A stretch of DNA of 64,000 nucleotides from assembly GCA_041484665.1 (NCBI GenBank), contig JBGPIA010000021.1:1-64000 (forward strand), in the 5' to 3' direction. Of the stretch, positions 801 to 21,253 are shown one piece after another; the first letter of the stretch is position 1; the number at the start of each line of letters is the position of its first letter. The notes beneath the pieces are model-generated. The model searched no databases and had not been told where the DNA came from. It worked only from the letters and a program-made list of their open reading frames with translations. A program made the position numbers and the translations under genes. This stretch comes from Candidatus Krumholzibacteriia bacterium (GTDB taxonomy: Bacteria > Krumholzibacteriota > Krumholzibacteriia > JAJRXK01).

Positions 801-1243
801 TCACCCGACGCTCGGCTCGCCCTTCGCCTCGACGTAAGGTGCCACGCGCTCGCGGATGGTGGCCGGGATCTCCTGGACGCGCAGCGATCCCCGCCCACAA
901 AGGCATGGGCCACGGAGCCTGCGGCGCTCGGGAGCGCCCGGGGCGCGGCGGCGGGGCGCAGCTCGAACTGCCACGTCCACGAATGGCGGCCCAGCTGGCT
1001 GATCCAGGCCCCGATCTCGATTTCGTCGCCGTGATGCAGCGGCGCGCGGAACGCCGCCTTTGCGGAGACGATCGGCACGCCGATGCGACCCTGGTCGAAG
1101 CGCTCCTGGAACGGTACCCCGAGCGCGTCGTGGAAGAAGCTCTCGTAGGCCAGATGCAGGTAGTGGAAGATCCGCAGGTAGTACACGAGCCCGGCGTGAT
1201 CGACGTCGCCGAAGGGGACGCGCATGCGGAAGCGGTGGCGCAC
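801..1243 (-). CDS. Acyl-CoA thioesterase (4HBT/YbgC hot-dog family), apparent 1-nt frameshift near 891-897
   Basis: RVPFGDVDHAGLVYY motif and ...AAFRAPLHHGDEIEI; the natural C-terminus GSLRVQEIPATIRERVAPYVE lies in a shifted frame ending at TGA 801; start uncertain. Confidence 0.8.
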
Positions 1244-1651
1244 GATGGCTCCGCAGGGACTGGCGGGGGCATCTCTGGCTCGGGCCGCCGTTGATCGCGC
1301 TGCGAGCCGCCCGACAGCCATCGGCAAGGGTCGCGGCGCGCGCCGCGCGTGTGGTGCCCGGTCGAAGCGTGGCCGACCAGGTTTGCCGGCGCCGCGCAAG
1401 CTAGAGCGGCGGACGGCGATGCAGCTGGCGTGGGGGACGCGGACTTGCCGGGCGATCCGACCGGCGAGCCAGGCAGCTTCTGGACGTGGGGCCATGGCCG
1501 CGAGCGCTCCGCTGTGTTAGGTTGCGCGCACCACGGTGATCGAGCCTGCACGGCGGGGCCGCAGGATGGGGCCGCCATGGCGCGACCCTCGCGTGCGCGA
1601 GGCAGCCGGCGGAGTCGCAACCCCCTGCGACCGCCCCACGATCACCAGCTC

Positions 1652-4600
1652 ATGCCGCAGCCCGCTGGGTTCGTCGTTCGTGCCATACGCGCAGCTCACG
1701 CCGTGCGCGCCTCCCGGCGATTCGTCTGGCTGACCGTTGTGCTTGCCGTGCTGGCGCTCTTGGCGCCGCGCGCGGGCCAGGGCACGCTCGCGCAGCCGAC
1801 TGCGGGGACGCCTTCAGGCGCCGCCCCGGCCCTGCGCCCGGCGGACCCGCACGCGGCAGCAGGAGCCACCGCCCCCGCCCCGCGGGCGGCGGACATGCAC
1901 TCGGGACAGGTCTACGTGCGACTTGAAAGCTTTGCGCTCGCCGCGACCACCGGCGCGCAAACGCAGGCCGCCACGCCGGGCGCCGAGGCTCCCGCGCGCT
2001 CCCTGCAGCAGTGGGAGGCTCTGGCCACGAGCTGCGGGCCGCTGGAGCTGTCGGGGCGCCTCGCCCGACAGGGGCTCGCGCTCGTGCCCATCCTGCCCCG
2101 CGGTGCGGCGGCCATCGCGGTGGCGCGCGGGCAATCGGCCGCGCGCGGTCGCTTCGCGCGTGCCCGCACGGCGGCGAGCTTCACACCGCTGCAGGCCGAC
2201 GCGGCCCAGGGTGTGCCCGCTGCGGTCGAGCGCCTGCTGCGCTGGCGTGCGGTCCGGCCGCTCTCCTCGAGGGCGGCGAGGGCGGGGCTGCCCAACGTCG
2301 ATGCGCTGGTGTCGTGGCTGCGTACGGTGCGCGGCATCGAGGCGGCCGAGCCGGGCTATCTGACGGCGGTCTGCGCGGTGCCCGGCGACCCGTGGGTCGG
2401 CTCACAGCCGTACCTGGGGCTGGTGGACGCCTTCAGCGCCTATGACCGCGTGCGCGGCGCCGATGGAGACGTGGTGGTGGCCATCGTCGATGGCGGGACC
2501 GACTGGCACCACGAGGACCTGTGGGCCAACGTCTGGGACCGCCCCGGGGAGATCGACGGCAACGGCGTCGATGACGATGGCAACGGGTACGTCGACGACG
2601 TCCACGGCTGGAACTTCGCCGACAACACGCCCGACCCGACGGGGCTGCCGCAGACGCCCGCCAGCGCCCGGCACGGCACGCACATCGCAGGGCTGATCGG
2701 CGCGATCAGCGGCAACGGGATCGGCGTCGCCGGCATGTCGTGGAACGCGCGCCTGCTGCTGGTGAACGCGGCGTTCCCGGACGGCGATGGCCTGCTGGCC
2801 TACGGTTATGATGGCCTCGTGTACGGCGCCCTCAGCGGCGCTGCGATCCTCAATGCGAGCTGGGGGCGCGGCGTCCCCCAGCGGTGGTCTCAATACGAGG
2901 CCGACGTGGTCGCGGCCGTCACCGCCATGGGCTCGCTGGTCGTGGCCGCCGCGGGGAACGACGGCACCTCCGAGCCATTCTATCCGGCGTTCTACCCGGG
3001 GGCGCTCTCGGTGACGGCGGTCGATCCCAACCTGCAGCTGATGACCTTCACCAACCACGCGCCCTGGATCGACGTGGCGGCCCCCGGCCTCAGCCTCTTC
3101 TCCACGCTGCCAGGCAACACCTACGGGTCGTTGACGGGGACCTCGCAGGCGGCAGCGATCGTCAGCGGCGCGGCCGCGCTCGTGGCCACGCTGCGCCCCG
3201 ATCTGGGACCGCTGCAGATCGGCGAGCGCCTGCGCTGGACGGCTCGCCCGCTGGACGATCTCAACCCCGGCGCGCACGGGGAGCTGGGCAGCGGCATCAT
3301 CCAGGCCGGCGCGGCGCTCGAGCAAGATCCGCCCGGGATCATCGCCGACCGGATCGTCTTGAGCGACGACGACGGCGATGGGTTGGTGGAACCGGGCGAC
3401 CTGCTCACCGTCGGCGTCGACCTCCACAACGAGCTCGCGGCGGCGGAAAACGTCACGCTGACCCTGGCTACCGCTGACCCGGCCCTCGTGCTGCTGGAGC
3501 AATCGGTGCACCTCAACCGCGTGCTCTCGGGGGAGGCGCTGCAGGTACGCCGCGGGCTGCGTGTCTGGATTCGCCCGGAGGCGGCGGTCCCCGGCGCCCT
3601 GGCGACCCTGCGTCTGCTCATCGACGCCGGAGGCCGCCAGACCCACACCGCCTTCTACCCCGAAATCCACCCGCTGCACGCCACGCTGCGCTCGCAGCGG
3701 GTCGATCTGACGGTGACCTGCACGGGCAAGATCGGCTACAGCGCGCTGACGCGTGCCATCGATCCCGGTGGCGAGGGGTTGCACGCGCCTGGCGCACCAT
3801 CGCGCCTGCTGCTCGGCTCGCTGCTCGTGGGGGATGGACCGCAGCGCGTCGCCGACGCTCTGATCCCCCCCGCGCCCGACGATCCATTCGAGGACTTCTA
3901 TCCGCAGGCTCAGGAAGCCCTCGTGCGGGAAACCGGCCCCGGAGCGCAGGAGACGATCGTCGCGAACTACTCCGACCGCGCCTCCACCATGCCGCTGGAC
4001 GTCACGGTCCGACAGGTCTCCCGCGCCTTCGGCGACGACGCACGCGGCGGCTTCGTGCTGTGTCGCTACGAGGTCTCGGCCGCGCGCGACGCGCGGCCGG
4101 GCGTGCGCCTGGGCGTCCTGCTCGACTGGGAGATGCGGCCTGACCCCAGCGGGGTCGACCAGGCCTTCCTCGACCCGCAGCGCCGGCTGGCCTGGGCCGT
4201 TGACGCCACCGGCGACGCGCGTGCCGGCGCGGCCGCCGGGGTGCTCGTGCTGGAGGGTCCGGGGAGCTTCACCGGCGGCTGGTTATACGATGAGCCGGTG
4301 GAGGGAACCACGGGCCCCACTCTGTTCGGCCCGCCGCCATTCTACGCGTCGATCGACGACGCCGCGCTGTGGGAGATGATGCTGCGGCCTCCGATCACGC
4401 AGCCGAGCCCGCTCGGCGAGGTTGCGAGCGTCGTCGCCATGGGCCCAGTCGACCTGCTGCCCGGCCATGCAGCGGTGCTCTCGCTGGCGTTCCTGGTGGC
4501 GCCCGACGCCTTGACCCTGCTGCGCGAGGCCGAGGCGGCGCGGGTGCAGTACGCGGCCTTTCAGGCTGGCTTCTCCGAGGGCATGCCGATGCGGCCCGAG

Positions 4601-11784: not shown

Positions 11785-13614
11785 TCAGTCCAGGGTGAAG
11801 ACCTCGCGCCAGTTCTCCTTGTCCTGCCAGTTGGGCTGGTCGGGCTTGTTCAAGACGAACGGGCCCAGCACCAGTCGGTCCATCTCCGTGCGCATGAAGC
11901 AGCGGTAGGCGTCCTGTGGCGTGCAGACGATGGGCTCCCCGCGTACGTTGAAACTGGTATTGATGATGACCCCACACCCCGTCATGCGCTCGAACTCCGT
12001 GAGGATGGCGTGATAGCGCGGGTTGGTCTCGCGGCTGACCGACTGGATGCGCGCCGAGTAGTCCACGTGCGTGATCGCGGGCAGGTCGGAGCGCGGGCGG
12101 TTCACCCATTGGTGCACGTCGAGGTCGCGCTCGTCCCCCGCCGGGCGCAGGCACCGTTCCGGGCGCACCTGCGCTACCAGCAGCATGTACGGGGACGGGC
12201 GGTCCAGCTCGAAGTACTCCGCAATGCGCTCCTGGAGGCAGGAGGGCGCGAACGGACGGAAGCTCTCCCGGAACTTGATCTTCAGGTTCATGATGGACTG
12301 CATCTTCGGCGAGCGTGCGTCGCCGACGATCGAGCGGTTGCCCAGCGCCCGCGGGCCGAATTCCATGCGACCGTGCACCAGCCCCACCACGTGCTGGTCG
12401 GCGATCAGGCGTGCCACTGCGCGCGGCCACTGCGCGTCCGGGACCTCCGTGTAGGGATAGGCGTGGGCGTCGAGGAACTCCTTGATCTGGTCCCGGGTGA
12501 ATTCCGGCCCCAGATAGGCACCCTGCATCGCGTCGCGCAGCCCGTCGCTGCGCCGCGCGTTGCCCATGGCATTGTGCCAGATGGTCAACGCCGCGCCCAC
12601 CGCGCCGCCCGCATCGCCCGCCGCGGGCTGGATCCAGAGGTCGTCGAAGATCCCCTCGCGCAGGAGCCGTCCGTTGGCCACGCAGTTGAGCGCGACGCCT
12701 CCCGCCAGACACAGGTTCCGCTTGCCCGTGACCTCGCGGGCGTGGCGCGCGATGCGCAGGACGATCTCCTCGGTGACCTCCTGGATCGAGCGCGCCAGGT
12801 CCATCTCGCGGCGCGTAACCGGCCCCTCGGGCGGGCGTGGCGGACCGTCGAACAGCTCGGCGAAGCGACCACTGGTCATCACCAGGCCGCTGAGGTAGTC
12901 GAAGCAGTCCATCGCAAGGCGGAAGGACCCGTCCTCCTTCAGGTGGAGCAGCTCGCGCAGGATCGTGTCCTTGTAGGTCGGCTCACCGTAGGGCGCCAGG
13001 CCCATCAGCTTGTACTCCCCGGAGTTCACCCTGAATCCCGTGTAGTACGTGAACGCGGAGTAGAGCAGGCCCAGGGAGTGTGGGAAGCGGATCTCCTCCA
13101 GCAATCGCAGCCGGTGCCCCTCGCCCACGCCGATGGTCGCTGTCGACCATTCGCCGACGCCGTCCAGCGTCACGATCGCGGCCTCCGGAAACGGTGAGGG
13201 GTAGAAGGCGCTCGCCGCGTGCGACTCGTGGTGCTCCGGAAAGTACACGCGCCCCGGCGCGTCGACGCCGCAGTCGCGCAACGCGTCCTGGATCTGCGGC
13301 GTGACCCACAGACGATCCTTCAGCCACAGCGGCAGGGCCTTCATGTAAGGGCGCAAGCCGCGCGGGGCGACGGAGAAGTACGTTTCGAGGATGCGGTGGA
13401 ACTTCAGCATCGGCTTGTCGTAGAAGGCAACCGCGTCGAGCGCCGCGCCGTCCCCGGACTCTGCCAGGCAGTAGCGGACGGCGTGGTGGGGGAACCCGGC
13501 GTCGTGCTTCTTGCGCGTGAACCGCTCCTCCTGCGCGGCGGCCACGATCACGCCGTCCTCGACCAGACAGGCGGCCGAATCGTGGTAGTAGGCGCTGATA
13601 CCCAGGATCCGCAT
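11785..13614 (-). CDS. Carbamoyltransferase, NodU/CmcH family
   Basis: MRILGISAYYHDSAA, QEERFTRKKHD, EHHESHAASAF, DGVGE, GEYKLMGLAPYG, GGVALNCVANG, EFGPRALGNRS, KFRESFRPFAP, NTSFNVRGEP. Confidence 0.96.
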   Translation of the reverse strand: MRILGISAYYHDSAACLVEDGVIVAAAQEERFTRKKHDAGFPHHAVRYCLAESGDGAALDAVAFYDKPMLKFHRILETYFSVAPRGLRPYMKALPLWLKDRLWVTPQIQDALRDCGVDAPGRVYFPEHHESHAASAFYPSPFPEAAIVTLDGVGEWSTATIGVGEGHRLRLLEEIRFPHSLGLLYSAFTYYTGFRVNSGEYKLMGLAPYGEPTYKDTILRELLHLKEDGSFRLAMDCFDYLSGLVMTSGRFAELFDGPPRPPEGPVTRREMDLARSIQEVTEEIVLRIARHAREVTGKRNLCLAGGVALNCVANGRLLREGIFDDLWIQPAAGDAGGAVGAALTIWHNAMGNARRSDGLRDAMQGAYLGPEFTRDQIKEFLDAHAYPYTEVPDAQWPRAVARLIADQHVVGLVHGRMEFGPRALGNRSIVGDARSPKMQSIMNLKIKFRESFRPFAPSCLQERIAEYFELDRPSPYMLLVAQVRPERCLRPAGDERDLDVHQWVNRPRSDLPAITHVDYSARIQSVSRETNPRYHAILTEFERMTGCGVIINTSFNVRGEPIVCTPQDAYRCFMRTEMDRLVLGPFVLNKPDQPNWQDKENWREVFTLD

Positions 13615-13631
13615 CTCAGCTCCGCGCTGGC

Positions 13632-14156
13632 TCAGAACTGCCGCTCGTAGGCGGAGAGCGACGGCTCGCGTTGCGACCGCGTGTGCCAGTAGGTGGGTGC
13701 AGCCGGGTCGAACCAGCGCTGCAGGCCGTCGCGGCGCCCGCGCCGCAGCAACAGCCCGAAACCCAGGAAGAAGACGTAGAAGAGCGGCACCAGCAGCGCG
13801 TAGGTCAGCACGCGGCCCACCATGTGCCCCACGGCGTCCAGACCCGCCTGCAAGCGCGCATAGGCGCCCAACGGCGATGCAAGTGCGCAGCCGAGGTTGA
13901 CCACCGCCACGACGGCGATGATCCCGCCCATCGCCGAGTGGCGCAGCGCGAGCGCTGCTGTCATGGCCAGTGCCGCCACCAGCGTCTGCAGCGCGGCGCG
14001 CCTGCGCGCGTGGCGCATACGCTGCGGGGCGTCGCCCGCCCCGGCGGTCCGGCGCCAATGCCAGATTGCGGCGGCTGCCTCCGGGCGGCCGGCGCGGGAC
14101 TGCGGCGCCGGGCAGACGTCGTTGGGGGTCAAGGCGGTGGTGGTCACGATGGTCAC
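13632..14156 (-). CDS. SxtJ-family membrane protein
   Basis: Hydrophobic helices, G.LLRR...D.L, TYW, C-terminal YERQF; adjacent to carbamoyltransferase; start uncertain. Confidence 0.75.
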   Translation of the reverse strand: MTIVTTTALTPNDVCPAPQSRAGRPEAAAAIWHWRRTAGAGDAPQRMRHARRRAALQTLVAALAMTAALALRHSAMGGIIAVVAVVNLGCALASPLGAYARLQAGLDAVGHMVGRVLTYALLVPLFYVFFLGFGLLLRRGRRDGLQRWFDPAAPTYWHTRSQREPSLSAYERQF

Positions 14157-14468: not shown

Positions 14469-15155
14469 TCACTTGACCGCGGTGTTGTGCGTGTCGTGGT
14501 TGCGGACGACGAGCATCAGGACCGCAACGGCCGCACCGCCCACGACCCAGGCTGCGGGGGAGCCCACCGTCGCGGCGAGCACACTGGGCCGCTCCACCTC
14601 CAGCGAGGCGATCTCGGTAAGCGCCACGCGTCGGGTGCCTCCGCCGCGGAGCGGCAGGTCGACCGCCGTATCGCCAAGCGCCCGGCGCGGCCCTGGGCCT
14701 GCGGTGTCCAGTGCCAGCGCCGTTCCATCGCGCAGCAGAACGTGGTCGACCCGGGGCTGTCTCTCCACCAGCAGCAGGTCCTCGGGCGTCAGGACGTCGA
14801 CGCGCGCGGTGCCTCCGGAGGGCTCGGCCAGCTCCACGCGTTTGACCGCTGAGATCTCCCAGGACTCCTCCGGCAGTGCGGGGGCGTCAGCGCCGCGCGC
14901 TCGTGAGGCGGCGGTGGTGCGCAGCACGGTCCCGTCGCGCAGCCGCAGCGAGTCCCCCGGCTCCAGATTCACCGCGCTGCCGTCCTCCAGCGTGAGCGCC
15001 TGTACGCGCTCCCACACCAGCGGCCTGCCCCGGCGGTCCACGGGATCGAGGCTGTAGATGCGCTGCGCCGGGCTGCAGCCGGCGAGCGCCACGGCCAACG
15101 GAGCGGCGAGCACGGTGGCGCCGCGGCGCAGCCACAGATGTGGGAGGAGGATCAT
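14469..15155 (-). CDS. Hypothetical lipoprotein with C-terminal TM helix
   Basis: Lipobox LAGC after hydrophobic signal; internal repeat-like (V..L.L.DG....L) halves; hydrophobic C-terminus. Confidence 0.65.
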   Translation of the reverse strand: MILLPHLWLRRGATVLAAPLAVALAGCSPAQRIYSLDPVDRRGRPLVWERVQALTLEDGSAVNLEPGDSLRLRDGTVLRTTAASRARGADAPALPEESWEISAVKRVELAEPSGGTARVDVLTPEDLLLVERQPRVDHVLLRDGTALALDTAGPGPRRALGDTAVDLPLRGGGTRRVALTEIASLEVERPSVLAATVGSPAAWVVGGAAVAVLMLVVRNHDTHNTAVK

Positions 15156-15363
15156 CGGTACGTGCGCGCCAGAACGTGCGGGCTGAGTCTGCGCGGGGAA
15201 GCCGTGCGCGCGGCAGGCTCCGCGCGGTGAGGCTAGCATCCCACGGCGCGTGGGGCAACGCCGCCGGCCGCCCTCCGGTCGGTGGCCCCGTGGGGGGCGA
15301 GTCGCGGCAGCCCCCCGGGGCAGCGCGCGCACCCCGCCCGTCGGGCGGCAGGCTGATCCGGGG

Positions 15364-15393
15364 TTGGCATCGGCGAGGGCTGGGGATTAGCTT
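15364..15393 (+). promoter_or_regulatory. Possible promoter of gap-gap-glgP operon
   Basis: TTGGCA - 18 nt - TAGCTT; strong GAGGAGGGAGG RBS before ATG 15474. Confidence 0.4.
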
Positions 15394-15473
15394 CACGGAC
15401 GCTGGCGCCGGTCCGCATTCGCGGCCGTGGCCGCCGGCGCTGACCCTGCAGCCAGGGAAGAGGAGGGAGGACC

Positions 15474-16502
15474 ATGGCGGTCCACATCGGACTGATGGGC
15501 TTCGGCCGCATCGGTCGCAACATCTTCCGGATCGTCTACCCCCACACCGACATCGAGATCAAGGCGATCGTGGATATCGCCGATGTGAAGGCGCTGGAAT
15601 ACCTGCTCAAGTTCGACACCGTCCTCGGGCGGTTCAAGGAGCCGGTCACGGTCAAGGGCGATGCGATGTACGCCAAGGGGCGCCAGATCCGCATGCTCAA
15701 CGCCCGCGAGCCCGGGGAGGTGGACTGGGCGGCGCTGGGCGTGGACGTAGTGGTGGAGGCCACCGGGCAGTACCGCACGCGCGAGCATCTGCAGCGCCAC
15801 CTGGACCGGGGGGCGCAGACGGTGATCCTAACCGTGCCGCCGCGCAACCCCGAGGACGTCGACGCGCTGGTGGTGTGTGGGGTCAACGACGAGTCCCTGA
15901 CCGCCGGGCATCGTATCGTGAGCAACGGCTCCTGCACGATCAACGCGGTTGCCCCCGTCCTCAAAATCCTCGACGACAGCTTCGGCGTGCAGCACGCGTT
16001 CATGACGTCCGTGCATGCCTACACCAACGACCAGCGGCTGGCCGACGTGCCGGGCAAGGACCTCCGCCGCAGCCGCGCCGCCGCCGAGAACATCATCCCC
16101 ACCCACACCTACTCGCCGCGCGGGATCGGGCGCATCCTGCCCCAGCTCGAGGGCAAGCTCAGCGGGATGGCGCTCAACGTGCCGGTGCCCGATGGCAGCA
16201 ACGTGGACCTGACCACGCTGCTCGCGCGCCCGGTGACCCGCGACGAGGTGAACGAAGTCGTACGCAGCGCCGCCGCGACCACCTATCGCTCCATCATCGA
16301 GTTCAGCGAGGACCCGCTGGTCTCCAGCGACGTCATCGGCAACGAGCACTCGGGGATCTTCGACAGTCTCAGCACCATGGTGGTGGGCGGCAACCTGGTG
16401 AAGACGGTCATCTGGTACGACAATGGCTGGGGCTACGCGAGCCGCGTCGTGGAGCTGATCCGCAAGGTGGACCAGCTCCACGCTGCCGTCGCGTCGCGCT
16501 GA
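15474..16502 (+). CDS. Divergent type I GAPDH-family protein
   Basis: GFGRIGR, SNGSCTINA, VHAYTNDQ, WYDNGWGY; several canonical active-site residues substituted. Confidence 0.92.
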   Translation: MAVHIGLMGFGRIGRNIFRIVYPHTDIEIKAIVDIADVKALEYLLKFDTVLGRFKEPVTVKGDAMYAKGRQIRMLNAREPGEVDWAALGVDVVVEATGQYRTREHLQRHLDRGAQTVILTVPPRNPEDVDALVVCGVNDESLTAGHRIVSNGSCTINAVAPVLKILDDSFGVQHAFMTSVHAYTNDQRLADVPGKDLRRSRAAAENIIPTHTYSPRGIGRILPQLEGKLSGMALNVPVPDGSNVDLTTLLARPVTRDEVNEVVRSAAATTYRSIIEFSEDPLVSSDVIGNEHSGIFDSLSTMVVGGNLVKTVIWYDNGWGYASRVVELIRKVDQLHAAVASR

Positions 16503-16533
16503 GGGCACCAGACGGCTACCGCAGGGAGAAGCC

Positions 16534-17541
16534 ATGATCAACATCGCGATCAACGGGTTCGGCCGCATCGGGCGCAGCGTGTTCCGCATCCTCAGCGCCC
16601 GTGATGACGTGTCGGTGGTGGCCATCAATGATGTCGCGCCCATCGAGAGCCTGGCGTACCTGCTCAAGTACGACACGGTGATGGGAACGTTCGCGGGCGA
16701 TGTGCGCATCGAGCACGGTACGCTGCGCGCCGGGACGCAGGTGTCGCGCATGACCGAAGTGCGCGAGATCGAACGGCTGCCCTGGAAGGAGCTGCGCGTC
16801 GACGTCGTGATCGAATCAACCGGGAAATTCACGACACGCGAGCAGCTGGAGAAGCACCTGGTGGCCGGGGCAAGGAAGGTACTGCTGACCGTGCCCGCCA
16901 AGGACTCCATCGACGCCACGATCGTGCGCGGCGTCAACGACTCCGACCTGCTCGCGACGCACCGTATCGTGAGCAATGCCTCGTGCACGACCAATTGTCT
17001 CGCGCCGGTGGCGAAGGTCCTCGATGACGCGTTCGGGATCCGCAAGGGAGTGATGACCACCGTCCACGCCTACACTAACGACCAGCGGCTGGCGGATGTT
17101 CCGCACAAGGACTTCCGTCGCAGCCGCGCCGCCGCCGAGAACATCATCCCCACCTCGACCGGCGCCGCGAAGGCGGTGGGGAAGGTGCTCCCCAAGCTGG
17201 CCGGAAAGCTGGACGGGATGGCCATGCGCGTTCCGGTCCCCGACGGGTCCATCGTGGACCTGGTGGTGGAGCTGGAGCGCCGCGCCGACGTCGCGGCGAT
17301 CAACGCTGCGGTGCGCAAGGCTGCCGAGGGGCCGATGCGCCGCGTACTGGAGTACTCCGAGGAGGCGCTGGTGAGCAGCGACATCATCGGCAACTCCCAT
17401 TCCAGCATCTTCGACGCTCCCAGCACGCAGGTGGGTGGCTTCAATCTTGCTCGCGTAGTGAGTTGGTACGACAACGAGTGGGGCTACAGCCACCGGGTCG
17501 TCGACCTGCTGGAGCGCATGGCCCAGCTGGGCGCCGCCTGA
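16534..17541 (+). CDS. gap: Type I glyceraldehyde-3-phosphate dehydrogenase
   Basis: INGFGRIGR, SNASCTTNCL, STGAAKAVG, GMAMRVP, WYDNEWGY. Confidence 0.97.
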   Translation: MINIAINGFGRIGRSVFRILSARDDVSVVAINDVAPIESLAYLLKYDTVMGTFAGDVRIEHGTLRAGTQVSRMTEVREIERLPWKELRVDVVIESTGKFTTREQLEKHLVAGARKVLLTVPAKDSIDATIVRGVNDSDLLATHRIVSNASCTTNCLAPVAKVLDDAFGIRKGVMTTVHAYTNDQRLADVPHKDFRRSRAAAENIIPTSTGAAKAVGKVLPKLAGKLDGMAMRVPVPDGSIVDLVVELERRADVAAINAAVRKAAEGPMRRVLEYSEEALVSSDIIGNSHSSIFDAPSTQVGGFNLARVVSWYDNEWGYSHRVVDLLERMAQLGAA

Positions 17542-17571
17542 CGGCGCGGACCCGGCCTCCGCGGAGAGAAC

Positions 17572-19806
17572 ATGCAGATTCCCTGTCTGCCCATCGCCGA
17601 CATCGAGCTGCCGCGCGACGTGCGCAAGCTCTACGACCTCGCCTACAACCTCTGGTGGACATGGACGCCCCGCGCGCGGCGGCTGTTCAGCGCCATCGAC
17701 AGCGTGGCGTGGACGCTCTACGCCAACCCGGTACAGCTGTTGATCAACATCGACCGCGCGCACTGGGAGCCACTGCTGGGCAGCGAGACCTTCATGACGA
17801 CCTATTCGTCGGTCATCAAGGAGTTCGAGGCGTACGTGCAGGGGGAGGACAGCGCCTGGTTCCACCAGACCCACGGCAAGCAGGCCGGCGGCCCCATCGC
17901 CTACTTCGCCATGGAGTTCGGCGTGCACGAGTGCTTCGCGGGCTACTCGGGCGGTCTGGGGATCCTCAGCGGGGACCACCTCAAGAGCGCGAGCGACGTG
18001 GGGCTGCCGCTGGTGGGTGTGGGGTTGCTCTACCGCCGCGGCTACTTCCGGCAGACGATCGATGCCGACGGCCGGCAGCAGCACATGTATCCCCACTACG
18101 ACTTCACGCGCCTGCCCATGCGTCCCGCGGCCGGACATACCGGCCGAGACGTGATCGTCAGCATCGACTTCCCGGACCGCGAGGTGTTCGCCAAGCTGTG
18201 GGTCGCCCAGATCGGCCGCGTGCCGCTGGTGCTGCTGGACACCGACATCTTCCAGAACGACCCCTCGGATCGGCCGATCACCAGCATCCTGTACGTGCGC
18301 GGGCGCGAGATGCGCATCGCCCAGGAGCTGGTGCTGGGCGTGGGCGGCGTGCGGGCACTACGCGCCCTGGACATCGAGCCGGGCGTCTGGCACATGAACG
18401 AGGGGCATAGCGCTTTCCTGCAGCTGGAGCGCCTGCGCGAGGAGATCGCGGCCCATGGCGGCACCCTGGCGCAGGCGCAGGAGCGCATCACGTCGTCGTC
18501 GGTGTTCACGACCCACACGCCGGTTCCGGCGGGGAACGAGACGTTCGACGAGGCCCTGGTGCGCAAGTACGCGGTGCTGTGGGCGCGAGCGCTCGAGGCC
18601 CCGGTCGACGACGTGCTGGCCCTGGGGCGCGCGGACGGGAGCAGCGGCCAGTTCAACTTGACGGCCTTTGCGATCCGCACCAGCCGCACGACCAACGCCG
18701 TGAGCCGCCTGCACGGCGAGGTGAGCAACAACATGTGGCGGCATCTCTATCCCTCCGCCGGCCCGCTCGACGCGCCCATCCGCGCCATTACCAACGGCGT
18801 CCACACCAGCACGTGGCTGGGCATGGAGATGCTGGAGCTGTTCAACCGCCGGCTGGGGCTCAGCTGGAGGGACATGCTGCTGGCGGGGGAGGTGTGGCAG
18901 GCAGCGCTGGCGTTGCTCGACGACGAGCTGTGGGCCGCCCATCAGGCGCAGAAGGAGCGCCTGGCCCGGTTCATGCGCCTGCGGCTGCGCGAGCAGTTCG
19001 CGCGACACGGCTGCTCGCCCGACGAGCTGCGTGCGATCGAGCAGCTGTTCAGCACCGAGGTGCTCACCATCGGCTTCGCGCGGCGCTTCGCCACCTACAA
19101 GCGGGCCGACCTTATCTTCCGCGACCTCCACCGGCTGCGCGCCATCGTGGGCGACGCGCACAGGCCAGTCCAGATCCTGCTCGCCGGCAAGGCCCATCCC
19201 GCTGACCAGCCCGGCCAGCAGCTGATCCAGCACATCTACCAGCTCACCCAGTCGGATAATCTGCGCGGGAAGGTCTTCTTCCTGGAGGATTACGATATCC
19301 GCGTGGCGCGCATGCTGGTGCAGGGTGTGGACGTCTGGCTGAACACGCCGCGCCGGCCGCAGGAGGCCAGCGGGACCAGCGGTCAGAAGGCCGCCTGCAA
19401 CGGGGCCCTCAACCTCAGCGTGCTCGACGGCTGGTGGCCCGAGGCGTTCAACGGCCGCAACGGCTGGGTGATCGGCACCGAGTCGCAGTACGGCGATCCC
19501 GAGCTGCACGACGGCGCGGACGCCCAGTCGCTCTACCAGCAGTTGGAGGAGCAGGTCGTTCCCACGTACTACGAGCGCAACGAGGGGGGACTGCCGGCGC
19601 GCTGGATCGCGATGATGAAGGACTGCATCGCGACCATCACGCCTCGCTTCTCCTCCAGCCGGATGGTGCGCGAGTACGCCGAGCAGGCGTACCTGCCCGC
19701 GCGATCGCCCGCCCCCCCCGCGCCCGCACCCGTCTCCAGCACGCCGCCGGCTCCACCGCCCGCGGGTGTATCCGACGAGCAGCCCGCAGCGGCGCCCGGC
19801 CGCTGA
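17572..19806 (+). CDS. glgP: Alpha-glucan (glycogen/maltodextrin) phosphorylase
   Basis: LAYNLWW.W, YSGGLGILSGDHLK, HMNEGH, ITNGVH, GFARRFATYKR, AGKAHP, EASGTSGQK (PLP Lys). Confidence 0.96.
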   Translation: MQIPCLPIADIELPRDVRKLYDLAYNLWWTWTPRARRLFSAIDSVAWTLYANPVQLLINIDRAHWEPLLGSETFMTTYSSVIKEFEAYVQGEDSAWFHQTHGKQAGGPIAYFAMEFGVHECFAGYSGGLGILSGDHLKSASDVGLPLVGVGLLYRRGYFRQTIDADGRQQHMYPHYDFTRLPMRPAAGHTGRDVIVSIDFPDREVFAKLWVAQIGRVPLVLLDTDIFQNDPSDRPITSILYVRGREMRIAQELVLGVGGVRALRALDIEPGVWHMNEGHSAFLQLERLREEIAAHGGTLAQAQERITSSSVFTTHTPVPAGNETFDEALVRKYAVLWARALEAPVDDVLALGRADGSSGQFNLTAFAIRTSRTTNAVSRLHGEVSNNMWRHLYPSAGPLDAPIRAITNGVHTSTWLGMEMLELFNRRLGLSWRDMLLAGEVWQAALALLDDELWAAHQAQKERLARFMRLRLREQFARHGCSPDELRAIEQLFSTEVLTIGFARRFATYKRADLIFRDLHRLRAIVGDAHRPVQILLAGKAHPADQPGQQLIQHIYQLTQSDNLRGKVFFLEDYDIRVARMLVQGVDVWLNTPRRPQEASGTSGQKAACNGALNLSVLDGWWPEAFNGRNGWVIGTESQYGDPELHDGADAQSLYQQLEEQVVPTYYERNEGGLPARWIAMMKDCIATITPRFSSSRMVREYAEQAYLPARSPAPPAPAPVSSTPPAPPPAGVSDEQPAAAPGR

Positions 19807-19891
19807 GCGCGCGCGAGCGCGCCGGCAGGTCACCTCGCGCTTGCCGCCGGCGCGCCAGGCGCGCCAGGCAGTGTGCTAGACTCGGTGCTTC

Positions 19892-21253
19892 ATGCGCCGT
19901 CTCCGCCGCCGCTTCCCGCTCCTGCTCGTCGTCGCCGTTTCCGCCGCCACCATCGCCGCGTTCGCCGCCGGGGCCGCTGGCGCGGCGGTGCCTACGTTGT
20001 CGGTGCGCGCCAGCCGCAGCGTCGGCTCCGCGGCCGTGACGGCGTCGCCGACCGCCGCCGACCCGGTGGAGCGGGCGAGGACCCTGGGCTTCGAGCTGGT
20101 CGAGACGCGCACCGCGCGGCTGTGGATCGCCGATCGCGAGCGGGTGCATCCGGCGGCGGTCGACTCGCTGGACGCCTTCGTGGACCGCGCGGCGCGGCTG
20201 CTGGGCTTCAGCCGCGCGCAACGTGCGCGGCTCGCCCAGGAGAAATTCGACTATCTGCTGTGCGCCGATCCCAACGAGGTGGCTGCCCTCAGCGGCCGCG
20301 AGTCGGAGGGTGTGACGCTCCTGGAGCAGGGCGCGATCGTCACGCGCTGGCTGCCCCACGACCACGAGGTCGTGCACCTGCTGGTCTACCGGCGGCTGGC
20401 GCCCCTTCCGCCCGTGGCCGAGCCCTTCCTGCAAGAGGGGCTGGCCAGCGCGCTGGGCGGCCGTCACGACGAGGACGCCGCGGCGCTGCAGGCGGAGGGT
20501 GAGCGGCTGCTGGCCTGTGGCGAGGTCTCGCTGGAGACGCTGTGGGGCTTCCCGCGCTTCCACGCCCTGGCCGGGCCGGCCGCGCGTTCTTATCCCGTCG
20601 CCGCGCGATTCGTCGCCTTCCTGCTGGACGAGGGCGGGCCGCAGCGGCTGTTGCGCCTCTACCGGCTGCTCGCCTCCGGATTCGAGGACGTGGTGCTGCG
20701 CCCGGCCGGCGTGGTTCTCCAGCAAATCGAGGGCGAGTACGGCCGAAGCTGGGATGCGCTGCAGGCGGATTTCGCCGCGTGGCGGGCAGCGCACACGCCT
20801 TTGCGATTGTCGGCCGCAGTGGCGCCGCGCCGCAGCCCGGACCTGGTGGCGCGCGACCGCGGCCGGTCGGTCGCGCTCTGGCGCGACGCCGACGGCTCGG
20901 TGATCGTGCGCCTGGCGGGCGGAAGTGGTACGCCCGACGGCGTAATCCTGTGGGGGGACGTCCTGCCCCGCGGTTACCGGTGCGGCCTGCTTCCCGCCGG
21001 GGTCGATCCGGTCGGCCGCCGCTACGCTCTGCGCGTGGAGCCCGAGGGTGCCGAGCTCTGCGACTTCGCGCTGGACCGCGTGCTCGCCCGCCACGACGCG
21101 GCCCACGGTCCGTGCGGCGACCCAGCCGAGGGGATGTTCGATCCGCGCGCCCGCACCGTCACCGTGCGCATCCCCGCGGCGCTGGTGCGGCGCACCGGGC
21201 CGATCGGTCCGCTGCGGCTGCGCGCGGCGCTGGCGTTGCCCTCGGGGGAGTGA
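19892..21253 (+). CDS. Secreted hypothetical protein with gluzincin (peptidase MA-like) motif
   Basis: Signal peptide (RRLRRR...AAGA); HEVVH...LQEGLA and downstream Y. Confidence 0.65.
   Translation: MRRLRRRFPLLLVVAVSAATIAAFAAGAAGAAVPTLSVRASRSVGSAAVTASPTAADPVERARTLGFELVETRTARLWIADRERVHPAAVDSLDAFVDRAARLLGFSRAQRARLAQEKFDYLLCADPNEVAALSGRESEGVTLLEQGAIVTRWLPHDHEVVHLLVYRRLAPLPPVAEPFLQEGLASALGGRHDEDAAALQAEGERLLACGEVSLETLWGFPRFHALAGPAARSYPVAARFVAFLLDEGGPQRLLRLYRLLASGFEDVVLRPAGVVLQQIEGEYGRSWDALQADFAAWRAAHTPLRLSAAVAPRRSPDLVARDRGRSVALWRDADGSVIVRLAGGSGTPDGVILWGDVLPRGYRCGLLPAGVDPVGRRYALRVEPEGAELCDFALDRVLARHDAAHGPCGDPAEGMFDPRARTVTVRIPAALVRRTGPIGPLRLRAALALPSGE

Follow-up and report, generated by a model that had tools for sequence, protein, structure and literature searches.

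The window analysed here is a stretch of 64,000 nucleotides (positions 1 to 64,000, forward strand) of contig JBGPIA010000021.1 from the Candidatus Krumholzibacteriia bacterium assembly GCA_041484665.1, and the subject of this work is a tandem pair of genes on its plus strand that encode proteins related to type I glyceraldehyde-3-phosphate dehydrogenase (GAPDH). The upstream gene, copy 1 (15474-16502, +), encodes a GAPDH paralogue of 342 amino acids, characterized by its open reading frame (ORF), Pfam matches, alignments, an AlphaFold2 model and a fold match, and is a member of what we call the upstream family. The downstream gene, copy 2 (16534-17541, +), encodes a canonical type I GAPDH of 335 amino acids, which its ORF, its TIGR01534 score and the tree place in a downstream partner clade. 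Both proteins contain the Pfam domains Gp_dh_N and Gp_dh_C (105.7 and 182 bits in copy 1), and they share 54% identity (180/336, E 4e-130). A Shine-Dalgarno-like sequence, GAGGAGGGAGG, can be read directly at 15460-15470 (+), 3 nt 5' of the start codon of copy 1, and the 31-nt spacer between the genes (16503-16533, +) holds AGGGAG at 16523-16528, ahead of copy 2. The original prediction, made from the sequence of the window, described two full-length type I GAPDH-like genes 31 nt apart, the first with the stronger ribosome-binding site; the ORFs are as described, and the comparison of GAGGAGGGAGG with AGGGAG makes the second statement a fair reading.

Copy 2 carries the motifs SCTTNC, STGAAK, MRVP and DNEWGY, while GFGRIGR, SCTINA, VHAY, HTYSPR, LNVP and DNGWGY are found in copy 1. 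All of these had been quoted in the original prediction, and copy 2 is canonical as it stated. Residue numbers below follow what we take to be the B. stearothermophilus GAPDH scheme; the positions themselves were taken from alignments. Copy 1 keeps the Rossmann GxGxxG motif, Asp32, Cys149 (Cys154 of the protein, codon 15933-15935, +), His176 (His181, codon 16014-16016, +), Thr179, Arg195 and Asn313. The loop STGAAK (residues 207-212) is replaced by HTYSPR (16104-16121, +), with Ser207 changed to His, Gly209 to Tyr, Ala210 to Ser, Ala211 to Pro and Lys212 to Arg. Asn substitutes for Arg231 (Asn235, codon 16176-16178, +) and Gly for Glu314 (Gly318, codon 16425-16427, +), with both codons starting exactly at the predicted positions, 16176 and 16425. 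In addition, Ala stands in place of Cys153 and Met in place of Asn6 (Met8 in copy 1). Thr208-Gly209-Ala210 is the anion loop of phosphorylating GAPDH. According to the available part of a recent review (PMC12041015), Arg231 belongs to both anion sites, which bind the substrate phosphate (Ps) and inorganic phosphate (Pi). The proposal that copy 1 has both sites dismantled finds support at Arg231 and Gly209 and none at Thr208, which is kept in HT-Y-SPR.

Contigs from four other sediment metagenome runs match positions 15300-17700 with no listed differences, and one of them spans the junction between the two copies; the pair is thus no assembly artefact. Copy 1 and copy 2 are the only GAPDH-like genes in their own genome (54 contigs, 93.65% complete), and, judged by this assembly, copy 2 is the organism's sole canonical gap.

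The AlphaFold2 model of copy 1, built with 96 family sequences, has a mean predicted local distance difference test score of 91.8 and is low only at about residues 181-210, the S-loop region. A Foldseek search of the PDB with this model gave canonical GAPDHs (template modelling scores of 0.91-0.93, identities up to 47%) and no solved structure of the upstream family. Copy 1 is 45-47% identical in sequence to solved GAPDH structures, and the two best PDB sequence matches keep Arg231 and Glu314. Against the type I GAPDH model TIGR01534 (cut-off 367.2), copy 2 scores 440.4 and copy 1 scores 361.1, about 6 bits short. Copy 1 thus has the domains, the fold and the Cys149-His176 dyad of a type I GAPDH and departs from that class in its curated score, at Arg231 and in the 209-211 loop. 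It agrees with the upstream family in gene order, in Asn231, Gly314 and Met6 and in its place in the tree, and does not show the loss of Cys149 seen in other members. We rejected an assignment to Epd on its scores of 315.7 with TIGR01532 (cut-off 530.55) and 309.7 with NF010058 (cut-off 539). An arsenate-linked, ArsJ-associated GAPDH was likewise rejected on score (310.8 with NF033735, cut-off 450). Neither neighbour of the pair gave an ArsJ-type match, with a glucan phosphorylase gene on the downstream side and an ORF with no Pfam match on the upstream side.

Two sources supplied the loci: 40 relatives of the window's genome, and a scan that took a single genome for each prokaryotic species, in which the best 80 of 596 confirmed relatives were kept. 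Tandem GAPDH-like pairs were found at 49 loci, the window included, and the copy-1-like gene lies directly upstream of the canonical gap in 49/49 of them, a non-random sample since the loci were gathered by similarity to copy 1. The upstream gene is cut by the contig end at one locus (L056). At another, L012 (genome G009 of the window's family, about 1060-3016, minus strand), it is split by a frame change beside an intact downstream gap. About 100 N-terminal residues are thereby separated from the remainder of the protein, and the split could be an assembly frameshift or a real inactivation. According to record titles, the carriers are metagenome-assembled genomes (MAGs) labelled Candidatus Eisenbacteria, Acidobacteriota (Thermoanaerobaculia, Holophagales), Desulfobacterales, 'delta proteobacterium', Bdellovibrionales, Actinomycetota (Acidimicrobiia) and Planctomycetota, together with one Pseudomonadales MAG. 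Among the 46 pairs with inferable starts, stop and start codons overlap in 33 (by 4 nt in 21, 1 nt in 11 and 8 nt in one), four pairs are separated by 2-3 nt and nine, among them the window, by 11-88 nt. Linkage of the family to its partner gap is strict, and most pairs are also translationally coupled. Of 121 genomes sampled evenly across the window's phylum, at least 40 have two adjacent matches, namely 7/8 in the window's family (f1), at least 7/9 in f6 and at least 26/49 in f2; the motifs were inspected in 17 of these 40, those whose loci had come from the relatives of the window's genome. No adjacent pair occurs in families f3, f4, f5, f7 and f8 among the matches listed, where each genome has at most one match. 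Genomes G005 and G007 hold a third, distant GAPDH-like gene on another contig, with 38% identity to copy 1.

The substitutions of copy 1 recur throughout the family. The 50 aligned upstream rows have Asn231 in 46, Gly314 in 46 and Met6 in 41. In the 109 aligned canonical sequences, Arg231, Gly209-Ala210-Ala211 and Glu314 are invariant, with TGAA in 109/109. Four substitutions are the hallmarks of the family: Arg231 to Asn, Glu314 to Gly, Asn6 to Met and Cys153 to Ala. Other positions are retained. For nucleotide binding, the GxGxxG glycines are present in 48-49 of the 50 rows and Asp32 in 46 (with Glu in three more). His176 is present in 45 and Arg194 and Arg197 in all 50, and several Asp, Ser and Trp residues of the core are fixed as well. 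Some positions that are invariant in canonical enzymes are relaxed: Arg195 is kept in 32 rows and His190 in 3, and Thr151, Asn152, Gly209, Ala210 and Ala211 vary.

The catalytic cysteine itself is variable. Position 149 in the 49 upstream genes is Cys in 17, Ser in 14, Asn in 8, Ala in 5, Pro in 2, Ile in 2 and Val in 1, so that it is replaced in 32 of 49. The keepers are the window's family, two Eisenbacteria-related loci and some Thermoanaerobaculia and Desulfobacterales. On a tree built without this column, at least 4 changes between Cys and non-Cys and at least 12 changes of residue state are required. In a wider search the family profile was run against 1.84 billion cluster representatives (50% clusters), and its top 150 matches comprised 123 canonical proteins, 7 mixed or truncated ones and 20 with neither Arg231 nor Glu314. 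Two of these 20 are truncated canonical proteins, and among the 18 real variants one keeps Cys149. As Cys149 is replaced in 32/49 members, the role shared by the family cannot be thiol catalysis. The catalytic Cys is dispensable for the family as a whole, and copy 1 represents a Cys-retaining branch of it.

The tree was computed with IQ-TREE (quick search, LG+G4, no bootstrap) from 122 rows, consisting of 49 upstream, 49 downstream and 24 lone gap sequences drawn at random from 60, with the 36 remaining lone rows left out; its groups were defined solely by gene order, and four rows were flagged as long or of unusual composition. The 49 upstream rows fall on one side of a branch with a Shimodaira-Hasegawa-like approximate likelihood-ratio test (SH-aLRT) value of 100, the 49 downstream rows form one clade (86) and the 24 lone gaps another (99). 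Within the upstream group, copy 1 belongs to a clade of nine rows (99). The division into upstream, downstream and lone sequences was also recovered in a FastTree built from all 158 rows. The upstream and downstream subtrees mirror each other's sub-clades, a pattern to be expected for any two adjacent genes. On these trees the pair arose from one duplication and has been inherited as a unit. Apparently it was also transferred as a unit. Where genomes of the window's class lack the paralogue, their gap falls in the lone clade instead; the two-gene unit seems to have replaced, or to have been replaced by, an ordinary gap, which suggests transfer of the pair as a whole. Loci L022-L032 of this class, which have no paralogue, hold a single gap that falls in a different clade than the partner-type gap of their sister families.

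Selection was assessed from pairwise Nei-Gojobori ratios of nonsynonymous to synonymous substitution (dN/dS). Upstream and downstream values were 0.070 and 0.095 for L008/L009, 0.096 and 0.107 for L004/L005, and 0.032 and 0.082 for L017/L018, which belong to an Ala149 clade. Two pairs of loci with Ser149 gave 0.216 and 0.193 (L014/L016) and 0.260 and 0.254 (L019/L020). Comparisons with the window, in which dS is near saturation, gave 0.19-0.33 upstream and 0.16-0.20 downstream. Over all comparisons the paralogue spans 0.03-0.38, so that constraint on it is about equal to that on the housekeeping enzyme, whether or not Cys149 is present. The family is old, widespread and selected, and travels with a dedicated canonical gap. 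Three possibilities that could have counted against the original prediction went the other way: the substitutions are not sporadic and mark a conserved paralogue family, the dN/dS of this family is not relaxed and matches that of the housekeeping partner, and full-text searches of the literature, with most subscription journals outside their coverage, gave no published description of such a bacterial GAPDH paralogue. None is described either in the available part of PMC12041015, a review from 2025 on the aldehyde dehydrogenase superfamilies, where the term 'pseudoenzyme' is applied only to ALDH16.

Residues that the two members of the pair have in common also deserve mention. Tyr42 and Leu139 and the S-loop residues Leu186, Ala187, Val189 and Ser197 (copy 2 numbering) are common to upstream and downstream proteins and are not shared by lone gaps. 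In the S-loop segment HAYTNDQRLADVP-x-KD-x-RRSRAAAENIIPT, copy 1 equals copy 2 except at two positions. Within the window's class this signature is present in 17/17 downstream genes, and an alternative is present in 11/12 lone gaps. The S-loop forms core contacts of the GAPDH tetramer. The exception among the lone gaps is L021 (genome G035, f2), which is of the downstream type and has a partly changed S-loop signature (Ile187, Ala189 and Ala197). No upstream-type paralogue is found within its 4-kb locus, most f2 genomes have the pair, and the partner may have been lost secondarily.

The clade nearest to copy 1 was examined through its 120 best relatives among 5.8 billion proteins (64-100% identity). 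Position 314 is Gly in 120/120, and position 231 is Asn in 107, Cys in 8 and Ala in 5. Position 209 is always aromatic (Trp 54, Tyr 29, His 23, Phe 14), followed by Ser210 in 117/120 and Pro211 in 119/120, and Ala153 and Met6 are present in 117/120 and 116/120. This clade thus shows a single, constant remodelling of both anion sites, together with strict conservation of the catalytic dyad and of much of the pocket. Cys153, which is Ala here, corresponds to human Cys156, and any relevance of this to copy 1 is speculation; in the accessible part of PMC6325607, human Cys156 is listed among the proton-relay residues that give GAPDH its sensitivity to H2O2.

We propose, with moderate confidence, that copy 1 is a phosphate-site-deficient partner subunit that forms a mixed tetramer with the canonical copy 2. 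The partner would be produced alongside the canonical subunit, with the GAPDH fold, the dinucleotide motifs and the assembly elements retained. It would still bind nicotinamide adenine dinucleotide, NAD(H), and would be unable to hold the substrate phosphate or inorganic phosphate in the way GAPDH does. Occupying positions in the GAPDH tetramer, it could tune or stabilise the canonical subunits, in analogy to GlgD, which acts in this way on GlgC, or to the large subunit of plant ADP-glucose pyrophosphorylase. The shared S-loop is in line with such co-assembly. In the clade of copy 1, a covalent intermediate or redox sensing may take place behind an anion site plugged by the aromatic residue 209. 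On the comparative data, a partner subunit is the most economical explanation of the paralogue. The original prediction had left a choice among a pseudo-enzyme, a heterotetramer subunit and a new dehydrogenase; the first two, combined, are favoured by the 49/49 linkage and by the loss of Cys149 in 32/49 members under purifying selection, and the third stays as a rival for the clade of copy 1, where the catalytic-site residues are invariant or nearly so in the 120 nearest relatives. A more far-reaching version is possible, albeit doubtful: the housekeeping GAPDH of MAGs labelled with at least six phyla might be an obligate two-gene hetero-tetramer whose second subunit has a plugged pocket in place of the phosphate sites. 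With its reactive Cys-His dyad, that subunit might in the copy 1 clade sense redox state or NADH from within the tetramer that it shares with the canonical subunits, or provide a non-phosphorylating bypass there.

Several observations weigh against a partner subunit. One is a real tension for copy 1 itself, whose clade preserves Cys149-His176 and the neighbouring pocket residues: Cys149, His176, Ser148, Thr150, Asn152, Thr208 and Asn313 are present in 120/120 of its nearest relatives, Thr179 in 119/120 and Arg195 in 118/120. Such a pattern is that of a working active site and not that of a dead subunit. The conservation of dyad and pocket argues that the pocket is still in use, and a covalent intermediate, the sensing of redox state or a changed reaction, for instance oxidation that needs no phosphate, may be its purpose. 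Adjacency, coupling and mirrored trees would also be expected for two separate enzymes co-inherited in an operon, and common ancestry alone may likewise explain the shared S-loop. The count of 49/49 suffers from the way in which the loci were gathered, and the two genes of the window lie 31 nt apart with no overlap. Nor was a convincing natural fusion of the two genes found among 47 long relatives. Three of these (P0271, P0272 and P0273; 673-703 amino acids, each in a single-member cluster) have two GAPDH-like parts: an upstream-type GAPDH, truncated at profile position 251, 238 or 144, is separated from a downstream-type GAPDH by some 90 residues that cannot be aligned. We rejected them as fusions because they look like frame-shifted gene calls that run into the overlapping partner gene.

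The main rival is that copy 1 is a separate homotetrameric dehydrogenase of altered chemistry, which we consider rather unlikely. In such an enzyme Cys149 would be acylated and NAD reduced; after the loss of Arg231 and of the Gly209 anion loop, the acyl group would be released by hydrolysis, amounting to non-phosphorylating oxidation of glyceraldehyde 3-phosphate on a GAPDH fold, or else the substrate would be a non-phosphorylated aldehyde. The (near-)invariant Cys149, His176, Ser148, Thr150, Thr208, Asn313, Thr179 and Arg195 of the 120 relatives speak for it, the aromatic residue 209 with Ser210-Pro211 looks like a designed pocket and not like decay, dN/dS is low, and the Rossmann motif and Asp32 are kept. 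There is also a precedent in E. coli Epd, described in part of PMC12041015 as a GAPDH paralogue with a changed substrate. It would leave unexplained, however, the sister clades that occupy the same gene position under the same selection and lack the nucleophile (32/49). In addition, no conserved third gene points to a distinct pathway, the family is strictly linked to a dedicated canonical gap clade, and the scores with the Epd and ArsJ-associated models lie far below the cut-offs.

A protein that binds NAD(H) and acts outside the tetramer without catalysis, as a sensor, a regulator or a moonlighting factor co-expressed with gap, would account for nucleotide-binding motifs that are kept across a family whose substrate sites are lost, and the operon structure is in favour of co-expression. 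We hold this to be improbable, as the S-loop arginines and many core residues that do not vary in canonical enzymes are invariant, the S-loop is shared with the partner, and GAPDH-type assembly is the easier explanation of both; no target is hinted at by the neighbourhood either. Still less probable, indeed very unlikely, is an ordinary second phosphorylating isoenzyme, for instance a gluconeogenic one or one with another cofactor. The full-length GAPDH fold and a TIGR01534 score just 6 bits under the cut-off would suit it, but Arg231, Gly209-Ala210-Ala211 and Glu314, which are invariant in 109 canonical sequences, are all replaced in copy 1, and members that lack Cys149 cannot be GAPDH. The loss of canonical active-site residues might finally be taken as the mark of a duplicate decaying into a pseudogene. 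This has next to no chance of being correct and was rejected, since the selection data contradict it (dN/dS 0.03-0.38, like the partner); the reading frame is intact, the replacement residues Asn231 and Gly314 are themselves conserved, the family is found in MAGs of several phyla, and the identical sequence is present in contigs of four further runs.

The gene next to the pair in the window encodes an alpha-glucan phosphorylase (17572-19806, +; profile matches to TIGR02094 with a DUF3417 N-terminal domain) and starts 30 nt 3' of copy 2. No terminator-like site was found in the 31-nt spacer within the pair or in the 30-nt spacer before this gene, which probably belongs to the same operon. A scan of 14800-20200 gave no promoter-like site, and the single terminator-like site in that region is on the minus strand and within chance expectation. 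An alpha-glucan phosphorylase is the downstream neighbour only in the window and at L007, L008, L009 and L039. Elsewhere this place is taken by phosphoglycerate kinase (PGK) and aldolase (L038), glycerate kinase (L040, L078), glucokinase (L043), phosphofructokinase (L048, L050), a peptidyl-prolyl isomerase (L004-L006) or unrelated or unassigned genes. The conserved unit is the pair alone, and the informative contexts are those of central sugar metabolism; no third conserved gene hinting at a special pathway was seen among the neighbours of the examined loci. On the 5' side of the pair lie a NodU/CmcH-type carbamoyltransferase (11785-14058, -) and, adjoining the pair, a 287-residue ORF with no Pfam match (14469-15332, -). 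A 453-residue ORF at 19892-21253 (+) has no Pfam match either.

Two further long proteins were encountered. P0121 (2089 amino acids) combines four GAPDH domains and a PGK domain with a start that resembles a signal peptide, and in P0135 (1455 amino acids) HEAT repeats follow two GAPDH domains. All of their GAPDH domains keep Cys149, Arg231 and Glu314; in each domain pair the first lacks the S-loop residues Arg194 and Arg197 and the second lacks Asp32. We rejected both as members of the upstream family, as their catalytic residues are complete and they are unrelated to it.

Few enzymes have been studied as much as GAPDH, which in bacteria is regarded as a homotetramer. If the sole glycolytic GAPDH of many uncultured lineages depends on a catalytically remodelled paralogue as an obligatory subunit, reconstructions that count 'two GAPDH copies' would be wrong, and the automated annotation 'type I GAPDH' would mislead for the paralogue. 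The pair would then represent a new partnership of enzyme and pseudo-enzyme in central metabolism, testable with two small soluble proteins. Copy 1 adds a large Cys-retaining branch, and its contrast with the Cys-less branches could reveal the role of the partner.

Type I GAPDH (TIGR01534, EC 1.2.1.12; Aquifex aeolicus 2EP7, B. stearothermophilus 1GD1) resembles copy 1 in its two domains, its fold and the Cys149-His176 dyad, and differs from it at positions 231, 209-211, 314, 153 and 6. Epd/GapB of gamma-proteobacteria, as described in the available part of PMC12041015, is a GAPDH paralogue with partly changed Ps and Pi sites and altered specificity. Its substitutions are other than those of copy 1, which scores far below the Epd cut-offs. 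We know of no tie between Epd and a canonical gap gene. The flagellar 'GAPDH-like protein' of Trypanosoma brucei is GAPDH-derived and has reportedly been discussed as something other than the standard enzyme; unlike copy 1, it is eukaryotic and has no tandem operon partner.

The chloroplast A2B2 GAPDH is a mixed tetramer of the paralogues GapA and GapB, both of which are catalytic, with their phosphate sites intact, and one of which is regulatory through the C-terminal tail of GapB. Chloroplast GAPDH structures (2pkq, 7q53) were among the PDB matches of copy 1. The likeness lies in the idea of a mixed tetramer only, which for the pair is a proposal. In contrast to GapB, copy 1 has no regulatory tail, being 7 residues longer than copy 2 with no Cys among its last residues, and lacks Arg231; the pair is bacterial and stems from a separate duplication. 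In the GlgD/GlgC system of Firmicutes and in HisZ/HisG, a paralogue that has lost catalysis stands beside the active enzyme as a partner subunit. These belong to unrelated protein families, and the GAPDH pair would follow the same logic.

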